From Nitrososphaeria archaeon (GTDB lineage: Archaea > Thermoproteota > Nitrososphaeria > JACIWG01): a DNA stretch of 64,000 nt. Position 1 is the stretch's first letter, and every line of letters begins with the position of its first letter. The DNA lies in assembly GCA_029776065.1 (NCBI GenBank), contig JARVJP010000009.1, forward strand, positions 50,911-114,910, in the 5' to 3' direction. The position numbers and the translations under genes are program-made. Positions 22,768-62,180 of the stretch are shown piece by piece. Below the pieces are notes generated by a model. It saw only the letters and a program-made list of their open reading frames with translations, was not told the DNA's origin and ran no database searches.

Positions 22768-23352
22768 TTAGACTGTAGCAATAATGTTCAAAAAGCCTTC
22801 TCTAATTATTGACACCGCATAAGCAGCCATTAGCATTGACATCATTTTATCTAGAACGAGGGTCCCATTTCGCCCTAATAACTTTAACATCGTTCCACCA
22901 GCCAACAAAATAACTAAAGTGATAAAAACACTAACAACTATGCTTAAAACTGCAACTAGAAAACCTAAAGTATACTTTATATAAATAACAAGAGTTAGTG
23001 CTCCTGGCCCTGCTAGGAGGGGTGTTGCCATCGGAACGATACTTATTTTTTCTACGTCTTTCTTTGGCATCAATGGTATTTCTAAAAGACCTAAAATTGA
23101 GTAGATAAGCAGTATCATTCCTCCCGCTATCCGGAAATCGTCCACTTTAATATCTAATGAAGTGAGAACTATGTCGCCAAAGACAGCAAATATGAGAAGT
23201 ATCAACGCAGCAACTACTACACTTTTCTTTATAATAGAAGAACGAGTGTCAGGATTAAGTTCCTTTGTTAGTGTATAAAAATAAGGCGCATTTGTAAAAG
23301 GATCAAGTACGATGAGGAGAAGTATTACAGCTTGAAGGATTAGAAGGATCAT
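22768..23352 (-). CDS. MarC-family (UPF0056) integral membrane protein
   Basis: 194 aa with about 6 TM segments. The N-terminal DPFTNAPYF motif is typical of MarC. Confidence 0.7.
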   Translation of the reverse strand: MILLILQAVILLLIVLDPFTNAPYFYTLTKELNPDTRSSIIKKSVVVAALILLIFAVFGDIVLTSLDIKVDDFRIAGGMILLIYSILGLLEIPLMPKKDVEKISIVPMATPLLAGPGALTLVIYIKYTLGFLVAVLSIVVSVFITLVILLAGGTMLKLLGRNGTLVLDKMMSMLMAAYAVSIIREGFLNIIATV

Positions 23353-40202: not shown

Positions 40203-40298
40203 TAGCCCGGACCAGAGTTTCGGTCTTATCTTTAAGACTTTCGAACTGGTGTCAACGGGTCCAAAGCCCGCTATGCTTGACCACTACACCACCGGGCT
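40203..40298 (-). tRNA. tRNA-Gln(UUG) with a 23-nt intron at position 59/60 (T-loop)
   Basis: I folded this cloverleaf by hand. Acceptor AGCCCGG/CCGGGCU with A73; D-arm GUGU..GCAU; anticodon arm GCGGG-CUUUGGA-CCCGU (anticodon at 40262..40264); T-stem ACCAG/CUGGU. The T-loop is 30 nt unless 23 nt are removed. No CCA is encoded. Confidence 0.88.
40217..40239 (-). other. BHB intron of tRNA-Gln (non-canonical 59/60 position)
   Basis: The central 4-bp helix is UUCG(54-57)/CGAA, the 3-nt bulges are AAA and ACU, and the inner hairpin is GUCUUA-AAGA-UAAGAC. Cutting after the 2nd nt of each bulge leaves the canonical T-loop UUCGAAU. Confidence 0.8.
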
Positions 40299-50661: not shown

Positions 50662-51198
50662 ATGGCGCAAGAAGAGAAATTAGTTGCTGAATTGAAGGGC
50701 AAAAACATTATCGTAAAGAATTTTGAGGCAGCTCAACAGCTATATAAAAGTGGGTTTGGTGAAAAGGAAGGGCAAAAATTAGTTTTTACCCCTTGTGAGG
50801 GATTATACTTATGCGACGCCGGTAAAATTAAGATTCATGAGAAAGGGTATGAGATAACCTTTGACAAATTAATGGATAAAATATACAAAAATGACAAAAG
50901 TATATTGACCAGGTTCTTGGTTTATAGAGACTTGAGGACAAGAGGATTCGTAGTTAAGGAAGGCTTTGGTTTCGGTATCGACTTCAGGGTTTATGATAGA
51001 GGAGATTATAATAAAAAGGCATCCAAATATGTTATTTCTGCGTTGAACGAAGGAAACGATTACGCTTTTAGCAAAATCTTCCAAGATATAAGAGATATAA
51101 GAAAGATGGGGAAAGAATCTATAATTGCAGTAGTGGATAGAAGGGGGGAAATAATATATTACCAACTATCGGAGGAAACGTTTAATGCGAAAAGATAA
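50662..51198 (+). CDS. endA: tRNA-splicing endonuclease subunit (EndA family), catalytic His not conserved
   Basis: FLVYRDLRTRGFVVKEGFGFGIDFRVYDRG and SIIAVVDRRGEIIYYQL match the EndA C-terminal domain. Tyr (RVY) and Lys (GKES) are present, but the His position reads Ala (KKASKYVI). Confidence 0.85.
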   Translation: MAQEEKLVAELKGKNIIVKNFEAAQQLYKSGFGEKEGQKLVFTPCEGLYLCDAGKIKIHEKGYEITFDKLMDKIYKNDKSILTRFLVYRDLRTRGFVVKEGFGFGIDFRVYDRGDYNKKASKYVISALNEGNDYAFSKIFQDIRDIRKMGKESIIAVVDRRGEIIYYQLSEETFNAKR

Positions 51199-58280: not shown

Positions 58281-58503
58281 ATATTTCCCTTATCGGTTTG
58301 CATCCAATACAAACTCCTATAAATGACTTTTTAAATATGTTTTTGTTAGGGCGATGAAGAAAAACGGTATCGAATTGATGAGAGGGATCTTGAGTGCTGA
58401 GCCTTTAGAGAAAGATATTTTCGGCTACCTCTCTACAACATATAGAACTTGATGTATGATTATAGTTAAATAATAGACTTTAGAAACTTAACTAAAGAAT
58501 AAA

Positions 58504-59670
58504 ATGGAAAAGCCAAAAATCTTTAAAGATGAAACTAAACTTTTCCCAGAATACATACCAAAAAAGACACCACATAGAGAGATGGAAGTAAATAAATTAA
58601 AATCTCTTTTCGATGTTGTTCTACAGAACCCAGCAGAGGCCAGTCAACAAGTCTTTATTTTAGGCCCTGTAGGTAGTGGGAAAACACTTGTCTCAAAGAA
58701 GTTTCTTCAATATATCGATGAACAATACCAAACGAATGCTATCAGAATTAAAACATACTACACTAATTGCAGAGTGAATAAGGTTTTCAGTAGCATTTTA
58801 AATAACATACTTGCTACGATAGGTCACTCTTTTCCTAATAGAGGTTTTTCTGTTGATGAAATAGTTCAATATTTTTTATCAGTAAGCTTAGAAGAGAATG
58901 TTCACATAATATCTGTTTTTGACGAATTCGACGCTCTAGTTGCTCATGAAGGTGTGGAACCACTTTACATAATAACTAGAATAAGAGAAATGGCGAAGGA
59001 CAGACAGATTCTCTCATCAATAATCATTAGTAAAACATTTTCATATTTGGATAAAGCAGATCGAGGTATATTAAGCTCGATACAAAAGAACATCATAAAG
59101 TTAGAAGCTTATAGTGAGACACAACTTAATGACATCCTCTTCGATCGAATCCTGATGGCTTTTAATGAAGGCACAGTAGGAAACGAGACAACAGAACTTA
59201 TAGCTAAGATTGCTTCAAGATATGGTGATGCTAGATATGCGATAGAACTGTTGCATCTTGCAGGCCGAATTGCAGACTTTAGGGGGGAAGACCGAGTAAG
59301 ACCGGATCATGTTAGAGAAGCAAAATTGCAGTTACCACCCCAAATAAGAAAAGAAGAAATCGGATACCTAGATGATCATGAGAAAATCCTCCTTTTATCT
59401 TTATCAAAGCTTCTAAAAGAAAATCTGGGGGAAAGAGTAACTTTAAAGGAACTACAGCAAGAGTATAACATGAGTTGTGAAGAGTATAATAAAACTCCCT
59501 TAAAGTACACTCAACTCTGGATTCGAATAAAGGACCTAGTGCAAAGAGACTTAATAAGTGCGGAAGTTTCAAGCAGAGGTCATAGAGGGAAAACGACTTT
59601 TATAAGCTTACTTAATGTCCCAGCAGAACAGATATACAATGAAACCAAGGAGAGACTAAAAAATGGTTGA
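58504..59670 (+). CDS. cdc6: Orc1/Cdc6 replication initiator
   Basis: PEYIPKKTPHRE, Walker A LGPVGSGKT, Walker B FDEFD, sensor region GDARYAIELL, and a C-terminal wHTH. Confidence 0.9.
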   Translation: MEKPKIFKDETKLFPEYIPKKTPHREMEVNKLKSLFDVVLQNPAEASQQVFILGPVGSGKTLVSKKFLQYIDEQYQTNAIRIKTYYTNCRVNKVFSSILNNILATIGHSFPNRGFSVDEIVQYFLSVSLEENVHIISVFDEFDALVAHEGVEPLYIITRIREMAKDRQILSSIIISKTFSYLDKADRGILSSIQKNIIKLEAYSETQLNDILFDRILMAFNEGTVGNETTELIAKIASRYGDARYAIELLHLAGRIADFRGEDRVRPDHVREAKLQLPPQIRKEEIGYLDDHEKILLLSLSKLLKENLGERVTLKELQQEYNMSCEEYNKTPLKYTQLWIRIKDLVQRDLISAEVSSRGHRGKTTFISLLNVPAEQIYNETKERLKNG

Positions 59671-59956
59671 TCTATCTACGATTTTTGGAAGTAAAGGAAA
59701 ATTCAAAATATTAAAGACTCTCTTAGAAGAGGAGGAAATAAACATTTCTTCGTTATTAAGGGAGGCTCGAATATCGTATCCTTTAGCGATCAAATACTTA
59801 TCTGAACTTGAGAAAAATGGGTTGATCAAGCAAAAGAGATTTGGTAGAATAAGGATAATCAGTTTAGAGAATAATAGGTCAACTAGAATACTAAAGAATT
59901 TCCTAATAGAATGGAAAAACAGTGAAGAAGAAAAAGTAGGAAAGGGGTTTGGATAG
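59663..59956 (+). CDS. small winged-helix (ArsR/MarR-like) DNA-binding protein
   Basis: FKILKTLLEEEEINISSLLREARISYPLAIKYLSELEKNGLI. There is an 8-nt overlap with cdc6. Confidence 0.55.
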   Translation: MVDLSTIFGSKGKFKILKTLLEEEEINISSLLREARISYPLAIKYLSELEKNGLIKQKRFGRIRIISLENNRSTRILKNFLIEWKNSEEEKVGKGFG

Positions 59957-59957
59957 T

Positions 59958-62180
59958 TTATTCTTTGTCTATGAATTCCTCAGGAGATGGAGGAATTTCG
60001 CTTAAACCCTTTCTTTTCCTTATTGACGCGATTAATTGCGTAAGGATGCTTGTTGGAACAACATTCCATTCTTTAAAGTGGGTGTTCCACATGGCTTTCC
60101 CAGCTGTTGCTCCTCTCATTGCTTCACTAAGATCGAAGGTTTCTGCTGCTGGAATAACACCTTCTACAATTGTAAGAATGCCTTTCTGCTCAACATTAAG
60201 CATCCTACCTCTTCTAGCCGAGATAACACTAGCGATTGGTCCTATCAACTCACTACTTGCTTTGACCTCGATACCCAGAATTGGCTCTAATAGAGTTGGG
60301 TTGGCTAATAGCAAAGCACCTAGAATAGCTCTTCTAGAAGCGGGTAAAAGTTGTGCATATGTCCTATGAGCTGGATCTTCGTGAAACTCCGCGTGATGAA
60401 GTATTACCTTAATACCTCTACACGACTCTTGAGCAAGAGGGCCATTCTCCATCACGTCTGAGAAACCAACTTTTATTGAATCAATTGACTCTTGCATGAA
60501 TTGAACACCTTTAGTTGAATCAATAAATATATTACCTCTTGGGTCAACAGAGATCACGTTTCTGGCTTCGTCCGCATCCCATCCGTGGTCCCTTAATATC
60601 TTAGCTACAGTCTTCTTATCACTTTGTTCATTAATTGTATTGTTTCTGATCAGTTCAATTATTTCAGATGCTAATGGTTCGACTTTCATAAATATACGGT
60701 TATGCTTATTCGGGGATTTGGACATAACAGGACCAGCAGAACCACGGATCGTTTCACGATAGTTGATTAGTGGAGGAGTAGTTACAATTTCAAGTCCTGC
60801 TTGAGCAATAAGTGTTGTAGCGATTTCTAGATGAAGTACACCCATTCCTGACATAAGCATTTCCCCTGTTTCTTCATTTATTTTGACAACAAGGTTAGGA
60901 TCTTCAATTGAAATTTTCCTTAAAGTGTCGATCAGCTTAGGAAGATCGCGTGGGTACTTAGGTTCAACAGCAATAGTTACAACTGGTTCAGAAACATACT
61001 TTATTTGTTCAAATGGCGTTATGTCCTTAATTGAGGAAATCGTTTCTCCAGCACGAGCTGCGTCTAGACCAAGTAAAGCTGGAATGTTACCTGAACCTAT
61101 GACCCCAATCAATTCTCTAAATGGCCCCATAAACATATTAACGGATTGGATTCTAGCTTGCGTCCTTGCGTTACTTAAAAAGACCGTATCCCCATCATGC
61201 ACAGTACCAGAAAATAGTCTACCTACTGCTACAACACCAGCTTGTGGATCAACTACAACATTTGTGACCATCATCACTATAGGTCCTTTCTCATCACAAT
61301 TTACTAGAGAAATTCCTATATCAGAGTTGAGGTCGCCTTTCCATATTTTCGGTATACGATACTTCTGTGCAACGTGCGGAGGAGGATGATGTCTAACAAC
61401 CATGGATAAAACAGCTTCATGAAGTGGAAAATTTTCAGACAAAACCTTTAGATTACCTTCTTCATATGCTTTATAAATATCACTAAATTTTACACCTTTT
61501 TTCTGAGCGATCATGAAATTGAATCCCCATCTATCCTTTGCTGAACCAAAGGCTACACTACTATCTTGTATGCTTACCTTCCACTTTTGCTTATATTCAG
61601 GTTCAGCATATATTTCAACTAAATCATTAAATTCATTTACAATGTTTGCAAGCCAAGCCTGCATTTTATCTGGTGTAAGTTTTAATTCTTTAATCAACCT
61701 ATCAATTTTGTTTATATAAAGCACAGGACGAACTCGCTCCTCTAACGCCTGTCTAGTTACAGTTTCAGTTTGTGTCATAATACCTTCAACCGAATCTGAA
61801 ACGACAACGACACCATCAATTGCTCTGAGGCTTCGAGTGACCCTCCCTGTAAAGTCGATATGCCCTGGAGTGTCGATCAAATTTATAACGTAAGGGACGT
61901 TTTCATATTCATAATATAACGTTACATTCGCTGCTTTTATAGTCATCTGCCTTTGTTGCTCTAGATCCATATAATCTAAGGCAAGTGCTTGCCCCGCAAC
62001 AGAGGGACTGAGCATTCCGCAAGCAGCAAGAAGACTATCACTCATAGTCGTTTTTCCATGGTCTACGTGGGCAACAACACCTAGATAATTCGGGTCAGAA
62101 GTGCCCTTCTAAACCTTTCGAATCTGGTCTTTGTTGCCTATAATCTTTAATGCCTCTGAGGTAGTTTTATATCTTGGCAT
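59958..62180 (-). CDS. fusA: translation elongation factor aEF-2, split by a 30-nt BHB intron (exons 62117..62180 and 59958..62086)
   Basis: The track ORF starts just after the P-loop. The same frame continues upstream to ATG 62180 ([44 protein letters not shown]) with a single TAG. Removing 62087..62116 gives a 730-aa protein whose first 35 residues match the length of the crenarchaeal aEF-2 N-terminus as I recall it. Confidence 0.85.
62087..62116 (-). other. candidate bulge-helix-bulge intron within the aEF-2 coding sequence
   Basis: RNA: AGA-UUCG-AAA-GGUU-U-AGAAG-GGCA-CUUCU-GACC-CGAA-UUA-UCU. The central 4-bp helix is UUCG/CGAA, flanked by the 3-nt bulges AAA and UUA, with inner and outer helices. 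The insert contains the in-frame TAG (62109..62111). Confidence 0.7.

Follow-up and report, generated by a model that had tools for sequence, protein, structure and literature searches.

The 64,000-nucleotide (nt) stretch analysed here, called the window below (positions 50,911 to 114,910 of contig JARVJP010000009.1, assembly GCA_029776065.1, from a Nitrososphaeria archaeon), carries on its minus strand a gene for archaeal elongation factor 2 (aEF-2), and within this gene, at 62079-62128, lies a canonical bulge-helix-bulge (BHB) motif with an outer helix h and an inner helix h' (hBHBh'). The GTP_EFTU and EFG domains of the host gene identify it as an aEF-2 of Nitrososphaeria. The organism is AT-rich (37.9% GC), and the nearest aEF-2 proteins are supplied by metagenome-assembled genomes (MAGs) of Nitrososphaeria. 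The gene caller places the open reading frame (ORF) at 59958-62045 (695 amino acids, aa), starting at an internal Met at 62045 that lies past the P-loop. The frame that opens at the ATG at 62180 reads past exon 1 into Lys-Val (KV) and then meets a UAG, while removal of 62087-62116 gives a 730-aa aEF-2 ORF with the frame restored into the P-loop (AHVDHGKTT). The features of the locus are listed below, where arrows mark the predicted cuts.

62117-62180, minus strand: aEF-2 exon 1, with the ATG at 62180; 64 nt, i.e., 21 codons and the first base of Asn22
62087-62116, minus strand: putative BHB intron AGGUUUAGAAGGGCACUUCUGACCCGAAUU; 30 nt, phase 1 in the Asn22 codon
59958-62086, minus strand: aEF-2 exon 2, AU-CUA-GGU... 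through the stop codon
62123-62128, minus strand: outer helix h, 5' strand ACCAGA, in the Asp-Gln-Ile codons
62079-62085, minus strand: outer helix h, 3' strand UCU(A)GGU, in the Asn-Leu-Gly codons, with one bulged A
62119-62122, minus strand: central 4-bp helix, exon strand UUCG, in the Ile/Arg codons AUU-CGA
62089-62092, minus strand: central 4-bp helix, intron strand CGAA
62116-62118, minus strand: 5' bulge AA↓A, predicted cut between 62117 and 62116
62086-62088, minus strand: 3' bulge UU↓A, predicted cut between 62087 and 62086
62093-62115, minus strand: inner helix h' and loop, GGU(U)UAGAAG-GGCA-CUUCUGACC
62109-62111, minus strand: in-frame UAG two codons inside the intron, which would stop translation of unspliced mRNA after 23 codons
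62213-62226, minus strand: TATA-like A/T-rich box (AAATATTTTAAAAG), about 38 nt upstream of the aEF-2 ATG, recognised from sequence only

Read on the minus strand, the site is GACCAGAUUCGAA↓AGGUUUAGAAGGGCACUUCUGACCCGAAUU↓AUCUAGGU. The frame-restoring junction is unique, as only cleavage after the second base of each bulge gives the 730-aa ORF, and the N-terminus of the spliced product matches the GTP_EFTU profile from position 2. Folded as a BHB, the site has a free energy of -15.7 kcal/mol, while the minimum for the sequence is -16.6 (z = -2.85 relative to shuffles). Upstream, the TATA-like box is a putative promoter, from which exon 1 would be transcribed behind a short leader.

The insert was compared across aEF-2 genes from 80 loci, one per species (L numbers below). 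It is found at the identical position, here called site A, in 20 of the 80 loci, which together with the window makes 21 orthologues, all of them from Nitrososphaeria; the 58 other orthologues that are readable across the junction have no site-A insert and are colinear there. The inserts are 26, 30, 31, 32, 37, 42, 45, 49 or 63 nt long, mostly not multiples of three, and they share the constant context CA(G/A)A-UUCG-AA↓, then (A/U)GG...CC-CGAA-U(N)↓A-U(C/U)U(N)GG. All 21 intron-bearing orthologues keep the exon-1 peptide, and an in-frame stop (UAG, UAA or UGA) follows the 5' splice site by two to six codons in 21 of 21 introns. That every site-A intron has kept such an early stop despite its covarying helix could be due to selection that ends translation of unspliced mRNA early. 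Neither the loci nor the protein searches revealed an uninterrupted aEF-2 copy from the intron-bearing lineages.

The BHB motif is present in all 21 sequences, and its central helix UUCG/CGAA is invariant. The motif was tested explicitly on the alignment because the RNAalifold consensus favoured a shifted outer pairing. Imposed on the 21 sequences, the BHB pairs in 94.1% of the cells, compared with 26-53% when the partners are slid by one to three columns. The outer helix is paired in 98.4% of cells and the inner helix in 87.9%. Outer-helix pair 7-80 occurs as GU, GC and AU, and six inner-helix pairs show compensatory double changes, with none of 500 shuffles reaching the observed covariation score. 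Examples of inner-helix variants are GGUUUAG/CUAAACC, GGCCUAG/CUAGCC, GGUAUGAAG/CUUCAUACC and GGUGUAAAG/CUUUACACC. In several orthologues the minimum-free-energy structure is the BHB itself, and in the window the BHB comes to within 1 kcal/mol of the minimum. Because the gene is essential, exon 1 is conserved, the insert lengths break the frame and the helix covaries, removal at the RNA level is the only sensible reading, and the comparison confirms at the sequence level that the insert at 62087-62116 is a genuine BHB intron of the aEF-2 pre-mRNA.

For the excision in vivo and the enzymes involved, we infer the following course. The last ten bases of exon 1, ACCAGA-UUCG, would pair with exon 2 (outer helix) and with the CGAA at the 3' end of the intron (central helix), and this pairing would present two 3-nt bulges. 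BHB motifs are cleaved after the second base of each bulge, and the splicing endonuclease EndA would cut in this way here. An RtcB-type ligase would then join the exons and recreate the Asn22 codon and the frame into the P-loop, and the intron would probably be released as a circle. Unspliced mRNA would give a 23-residue peptide only. Thaumarchaeota are reported to have an alpha2-beta2 EndA of broad specificity (PMC4090602), and the non-canonical tRNA-Gln intron found elsewhere in the window would also need such an enzyme.

This tRNA-Gln gene had been set beside the aEF-2 site in the initial annotation, which described the spliced mRNA as a T-stem/T-loop mimic encoded by the conserved DQIRNL codons and proposed that a T-loop tRNA intron had moved into it.

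40203-40298, minus strand: tRNA-Gln(UUG) gene
40217-40239, minus strand: BHB intron of tRNA-Gln, AGUCUUAAAGAUAAGACCGAAAC; 23 nt, after position 59 (59/60 intron)

Every string quoted for that comparison is present at its place on the minus strand. The 5' exon strings ACCAG-UUCGAAAG and ACCAGAUUCGAAAG agree at 13 of 13 bases once one inserted A is allowed for, and the central helix UUCG/CGAA and the AA bulge of the aEF-2 site are identical to those of the 59/60 tRNA intron. The mimic itself holds up in part. Its loop UUCGAAA fits the 7-nt pattern U54 U55 C56 R57 A58 and thus has all five conserved T-loop bases. The stem fails as a T-arm stem, since at the window site it consists of 3 bp, a bulged A and 3 bp with an A-U closing pair, and not of a contiguous 5 bp with G53-C61; relatives such as L001 have five contiguous stem pairs, with the closing pair still A-U. 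ARAGORN and Rfam (at gathering thresholds and with E up to 5) gave no match to a tRNA-like fold at 62.1 kb. A stem with a 7-nt loop after splicing follows from the hBHBh' geometry, which contributes four central-helix bases plus two plus one, and by the same geometry the tRNA positions 37/38 and 59/60, both in 7-nt loops, are equivalent.

The loop corresponds to the codon string A-UU-CG-A-AA-U (Ile-Arg-Asn), and it is particular synonymous codons that produce the mimic, not the conserved DQIRNL residues. In the window, CGA makes up 8.3% of Arg codons and AUU 32.5% of Ile codons. ATT-CGA-AAT is found in 21 of 21 intron-bearing genes, compared with ATTCGAAAC in 2 of 58 intron-less ones (L030 and L069); the remaining intron-less orthologues have AGG, AGA, CGC or CGG as the Arg codon. 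This settles a check named in the initial annotation: the string AUUCGAAAC is as a rule missing from intron-less genes (present in 2/58). Within the central helix, U1 and G4 are fixed by the amino acids, and C3 (CGA to AGA) is without a neutral compensatory route. The invariance of UUCG/CGAA therefore needs no T-loop function, and it was rejected as a mark of such function. UUCGAA itself occurs 22 times in the window, where one unrelated stem-UUCGAAN-stem hairpin arises by chance. We therefore consider it likely, jointly with the reading of the insert as a BHB intron, that the T-arm likeness is a by-product of hBHBh' geometry and codon choice, with the loop fixed from the time when the intron came to depend on it. 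A BHB site will in this sense show a T-arm mimic largely by geometric necessity, which gives no evidence of tRNA ancestry.

The tRNA-Gln(UUG) gene is missed by ARAGORN and Rfam, and ARAGORN calls tRNA-Gln(ttg) when the 23 nt are removed. The BHB of its intron is the minimum-free-energy fold. The other three tRNAs of the window have the T-loop UUCAAAU. A metagenome scan for tRNA-Gln(UUG) with this anticodon arm, ending in ...CCAGUUCGAA, gave 28 loci, of which those with a 59/60 intron were L095 (17 nt), L106 (20 nt) and L087/L091 (21 nt) only. Among syntenic loci, the intron is confined to the window and L095, whose nucleotide identity to the window is about 81-83%. It is missing from those with 67-72% identity (L081, L088, L090, L100, L104 and L105), where the mature tRNA is identical or nearly identical to that of the window. 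In L087/L091 the gene looks interrupted in its 5' half too.

The DUF354 gene that adjoins tRNA-Gln was used to reach the tRNA on contigs that bear a site-A aEF-2. On JAOAKB010000003 (L002/L109) the tRNA-Gln is intron-less with the T-stem GAGAG/CUCUC, and on CALHLD010000024 (L003/L110) it has a canonical 37/38 intron and no 59/60 intron; both L109 and L110 carry GAGAG in the T-stem, not ACCAG. The ACCAG match is therefore local, as the T-stem is GAGAG in genomes with the aEF-2 intron. The 59/60 intron and the ACCAG T-stem are best read as features of the window's immediate lineage, and the intron as young. The interiors of the two introns, GGUUUAGAAGGGCACUUCUGACC and GUCUUAAAGAUAAGAC, compared without the first base, the CGAA and the 2-nt bulge, score 1.0 where shuffles average 1.72 (p = 0.90), and the three other 59/60 tRNA-Gln introns give p = 0.56-0.92 against the aEF-2 interior. 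The CGAA is common to both introns because it is the forced complement of the exon UUCG.

The distribution of the site-A intron was read on a neighbour-joining tree of the aEF-2 protein, which represents one gene and not a species tree. The intron is present in the window's clade, L013, L011, a Nitrosomirales group and a Nitrosocaldus group, and L027, which was left off the tree, has the same intron type as L013. It is absent from the sister group of the window's clade (L006-10, L014 and L063), and also from Conexivisphaerales-like sequences, Nitrososphaerales and Nitrosopumilus. The intron thus spans several orders. For its history we infer that it is old, since one ancient gain followed by repeated precise loss appears to be the simplest course. 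Loss by replication slippage between the CGAA repeats was considered and rejected, because it would leave two extra nucleotides, as opposed to the precise absence seen in orthologues.

Site A is not the only position in aEF-2 with such an insert. In loci without an intact HVDHGKT, inserts were found elsewhere, and in each of them the central helix, the inner helix and the 3-nt bulges fall exactly at the boundaries that restore the frame. Those of the P-loop region lie at about 1585-1630 in each locus:

L059/L060: 23 nt, CGGG-AA↓A...CCCG-AG↓A, in a Lys codon, phase 2
L064/L068: 31 nt, ACGG-AA↓G...CCGU, in a Lys codon, phase 1
L065-67: 32 nt, AUGG-UA↓U...CCAU, in a Lys codon, phase 1
L062: 29 nt, ACGU-AG↓G...GCGU-AG↓A, in an Asp codon
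L078: 30 nt with one central mismatch, GCGC-AC↓A...GCGA-UG↓G, between His and Val

Two more were found with an N-terminal query:

L116, 2892-2921: 30 nt, GGGC-AU↓A...GCCU-AG↓A, inside DTPGH↓IDF; Logan run SRR22388030
L115, 2974-3004: 31 nt with one central-helix mismatch, AGGU-AA↓A...GCCC-AG↓U, inside EEVM↓VQTETV; JGI Ga0172362

The introns of L064/L068 and L065-67 occupy one position and differ by a compensatory change in the central helix (ACGG/CCGU versus AUGG/CCAU). The hosts of the P-loop-region introns are high-GC Nitrososphaerales and one other Nitrososphaerota MAG (L078), and since these introns stand beside closely related intron-less genomes, this looks like recent gain or loss. The L116 protein is 74.8% identical to the window's aEF-2 and its gene has no site-A intron; the L115 protein is 55% identical, and its cluster was seen on 16 contigs.

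Altogether, BHB introns were found at seven positions in aEF-2, i.e., site A and six others, all in conserved motifs of the G domain, an apparent restriction that has to be read with the bias of the insert searches toward the N-terminus. Five of the positions fall within 35 nt around the P-loop (window CDS nt 64, 84, 88, 97 and 98). The 80 full-length loci have no inserts elsewhere, because these inserts explain their excess over 2190 nt to within a few codons. A T-loop-like core is found in none of the six other introns, so T-arm likeness is unnecessary for the gain of a BHB intron in aEF-2. We suggest, tentatively and as the less probable state of affairs, that splicing of the aEF-2 pre-mRNA by the tRNA-splicing machinery is a widespread and so far undescribed trait of Nitrososphaerota and their relatives, with repeated independent gains at the seven G-domain positions. 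If the clustering in the G domain is true, it could mean targeted gain or retention as with inteins, where imprecise loss is lethal, or alternatively a selection that couples elongation-factor production to EndA/RtcB activity.

Other kinds of insertion are also found in this gene. In L041 an intein interrupts the P-loop at GK↓T (about 1440-1530; after window CDS nt 99), directly beside the intron sites, and the aEF-2 homologues P0069, P0091 and P0116 are 1256-1277 aa long with intein or homing-endonuclease Pfam domains. Thaumarchaeal casposons are reported to integrate preferentially at the 3' end of the EF-2 gene (PMC6563490). With BHB introns, inteins and casposons, aEF-2 is hence host to three kinds of insertion.

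Some candidates did not hold. L113 and L114, short N-terminal fragments that might have been taken for intron-bearing genes, come from long-read ENA assemblies with many frameshifted genes and were rejected as homopolymer or frameshift artefacts; such fragmented genes mimic interrupted ones, which calls for caution in automated intron surveys. A permissive BHB scan of the window gave about 1000 chance matches and was discarded. A BHB scan of the window that required ORFs to be merged recovered the aEF-2 intron, and its other matches were intergenic-spacer-like or chance, so that we propose no second mRNA intron for the window.

The interpretation of the aEF-2 insert has to be weighed against the idea that it is not removed as RNA at all, in which case the locus would be a pseudogene or an assembly error, or would depend on stop read-through, frameshifting or ribosomal bypass. 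The protein collection yields no spliced product of the clade, the window's own insert is 30 nt and in frame, and the CGAA at the end of exon 1 and near the end of the intron superficially resembles the take-off and landing sites of a bypass. We nevertheless regard this explanation as extremely unlikely, because the insert is found in 21 independent assemblies with exon 1 and the downstream gene conserved, because lengths of 26, 31, 32, 37 and 49 nt exclude read-through as a general solution, because the downstream Met-initiated ORF is without the P-loop, and because the covariation keeps an RNA helix and not a peptide. A bypass from CGA to the second CGA was tried and rejected, as the landing frame AUU-AUC-UAG meets a stop. 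Several observations do weigh against a spliced intron whose T-arm likeness is incidental. No junction-spanning protein of the window's clade was found in the protein collection with full-length and 97-aa N-terminal queries, where the best matches were 78% (full-length) and 86% (N-terminal) identical, an outcome that tells little either way. The central helix gives no covariation support because it is invariant, and the RNAalifold consensus prefers the shifted outer pairing over this 4-bp helix. Lastly, the UUCGAA hexamer and the ACCAG 5-mer common to the neighbouring tRNA-Gln are a real coincidence, which we ascribe to chance and coding constraint. With these points counted, we hold with good confidence that the 30 nt are a canonical hBHBh' intron of the aEF-2 pre-mRNA and that the T-arm likeness is a by-product.

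With regard to its origin, the initial annotation was right about a real BHB intron in aEF-2 and about the core it shares with tRNA-Gln; descent from the tRNA-Gln intron did not survive the comparison. The interiors are at chance similarity and the donor is missing beside the aEF-2 intron. The window's tRNA-Gln intron cannot be the donor because it is lineage-restricted, whereas the aEF-2 intron, together with its GACCAGA exon, is of much greater age and spans several orders. An ancient 59/60-type donor other than this one may still have existed, and the more general proposal is that a 59/60-type T-loop tRNA intron entered, by transposition or reverse splicing, an mRNA site that happened to look like a T-arm, with common descent of the shared core. 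An intron that moves into an essential gene must splice at once, so that the target needs the donor's four exon bases, and UUCG-AA↓ is exactly what precedes 59/60 introns in tRNAs with a UUCGAAU T-loop. Such a target can pre-exist, as AUUCGAAAC is present without the intron in 2 of 58 orthologues. Like the aEF-2 intron, the four recovered 59/60 tRNA-Gln introns have A as their first base and close with CGAA or CGAG followed by two nucleotides, and for Thermoproteales a transposition of introns between BHB sites has been proposed (Fujishima 2010, cited in PMC4090602). Against this stand the lack of interior similarity past the forced positions, a tRNA-Gln intron that is polymorphic as well as restricted and is missing on contigs with the aEF-2 intron, the UUCAAAU T-loops of the three other window tRNAs, the six other aEF-2 introns gained without a T-loop-like target, and a stem and 7-nt loop that geometry forces in any case. 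An origin by this route is consequently quite improbable. Somewhat separate is the question of whether the site-A intron was gained several times, or spread horizontally, at the same position, instead of one gain with many losses. The intron is patchy on the aEF-2 tree, with the window's clade sister to an intron-less clade, introns at other aEF-2 sites are clearly recent and sporadic within Nitrososphaerales, and distant site-A interiors are often at chance similarity (L013, L011 and L031 versus the window). If true, insertion would need a mechanism specific to this site and able to recognise the UUCGAA hairpin. Yet the GG...CC base of the inner helix, the phase, the U first in the 3' bulge and the early stop are common to all site-A introns, precise intron loss is easy, and the patchiness rests on a single-protein neighbour-joining tree and not on a species tree. 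We therefore see several gains as rather unlikely.

The closest precedent for the aEF-2 intron is the BHB intron in the cbf5 pre-mRNA of Crenarchaeota (Watanabe, 2002; Yokobori, 2009, PMC2738675). Both are short BHB-bounded introns in a protein-coding gene of the translation or RNA-maturation apparatus, with presumed cleavage by a hetero-oligomeric tRNA-splicing endonuclease and a patchy distribution shaped by gain and loss, and like the cbf5 intron, that of aEF-2 interrupts an ORF that is intact in orthologues. They differ in host, as the known cases are cbf5 of Desulfurococcales and Sulfolobales and the present one is aEF-2 of Nitrososphaeria, another phylum-level group, whose cbf5 genes have been scored as intron-less (PMC2738675). 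They also differ in position, since the aEF-2 intron comes 64 nt into the coding sequence, just ahead of the P-loop, and belongs to a set of seven positions overall. In addition, cbf5 splicing has been shown experimentally, whereas aEF-2 splicing is deduced from sequence.

Compared with 59/60 tRNA introns, the UUCG/CGAA central helix, the AA↓ 5' bulge and the cleavage geometry of the aEF-2 intron are all identical, and the lengths are comparable (17-23 nt versus 26-63 nt for site A). The aEF-2 host differs in being an mRNA, in having no interior similarity, and in an outer helix made from Asp-Gln-Ile and Asn-Leu-Gly codons, which has A-U closing and a bulged A where the tRNA has a 5-bp T-stem with G53-C61. 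Non-canonical tRNA introns at 59/60 in the T-loop are reportedly found in the work of Marck and Grosjean from 2003 and of Sugahara from 2008. The intron transposition proposed for Thermoproteales (2010, summarised in PMC4090602) likewise has BHB introns moving among BHB-capable sites, and it differs in being based on near-identical introns at different sites of one genome, a similarity which is absent between the aEF-2 and tRNA introns. The splicing of HAC1 and XBP1 by IRE1 and a tRNA ligase is similar as spliceosome-independent mRNA splicing by an endonuclease and a tRNA ligase that is needed for a functional protein; it differs in endonuclease and RNA motif and in being eukaryotic and regulatory by design. 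Inteins and casposons are, like the BHB introns, selfish or mobile insertions in aEF-2, but they act on protein or DNA and encode their own enzymes, whereas the BHB introns are 23-63 nt long and encode nothing.

A full-text literature search of partial coverage found no report of a BHB intron in aEF-2 or in any thaumarchaeal mRNA. In the searchable literature, cbf5 is the only documented archaeal protein-coding host of a BHB intron, and recent papers still cite it alone. The aEF-2 intron, present in many relatives, is thus apparently unreported, and it is best classed as an addition to the cbf5-type pre-mRNA introns; the multi-site pattern in aEF-2 has the best claim to being new. With a second host gene, one that is essential, universal and a phylogenetic marker, mRNA splicing by the tRNA endonuclease would be no one-gene curiosity, and in aEF-2 one ancient intron would be joined by several recent ones. 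The recent presence/absence polymorphisms (sites B, C and D in Nitrososphaerales, and tRNA-Gln) offer material for tests of BHB intron gain.

The intron also bears on annotation. Strikingly many of the nearest aEF-2 proteins are annotated at 685-695 aa, and public calls of intron-bearing aEF-2 genes (P0001-P0019 and others) start at an internal Met and are without exon 1 and the P-loop. These truncated entries are a systematic mis-annotation of a phylogenetic marker gene, which affects marker-gene phylogenies and completeness estimates.

The neighbours of aEF-2 in the window are an Orc1/Cdc6 gene, a winged-helix regulator, a SIS-domain protein and an XPF/ERCC4 nuclease, none of them splicing-related. 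The Orc1/Cdc6 gene (58504-59670, plus strand) converges on the 3' end of aEF-2, with the small winged-helix gene (59663-59956) between the two, and a replication origin may lie near it. Sub-threshold Rfam matches to C/D-box sRNAs occur at 58350-58402 (plus strand) and 23219-23275 (minus strand), with sR44 and sR17 at 21 bits and SNORD82 at 26 bits, and these may be C/D-box guide RNAs.

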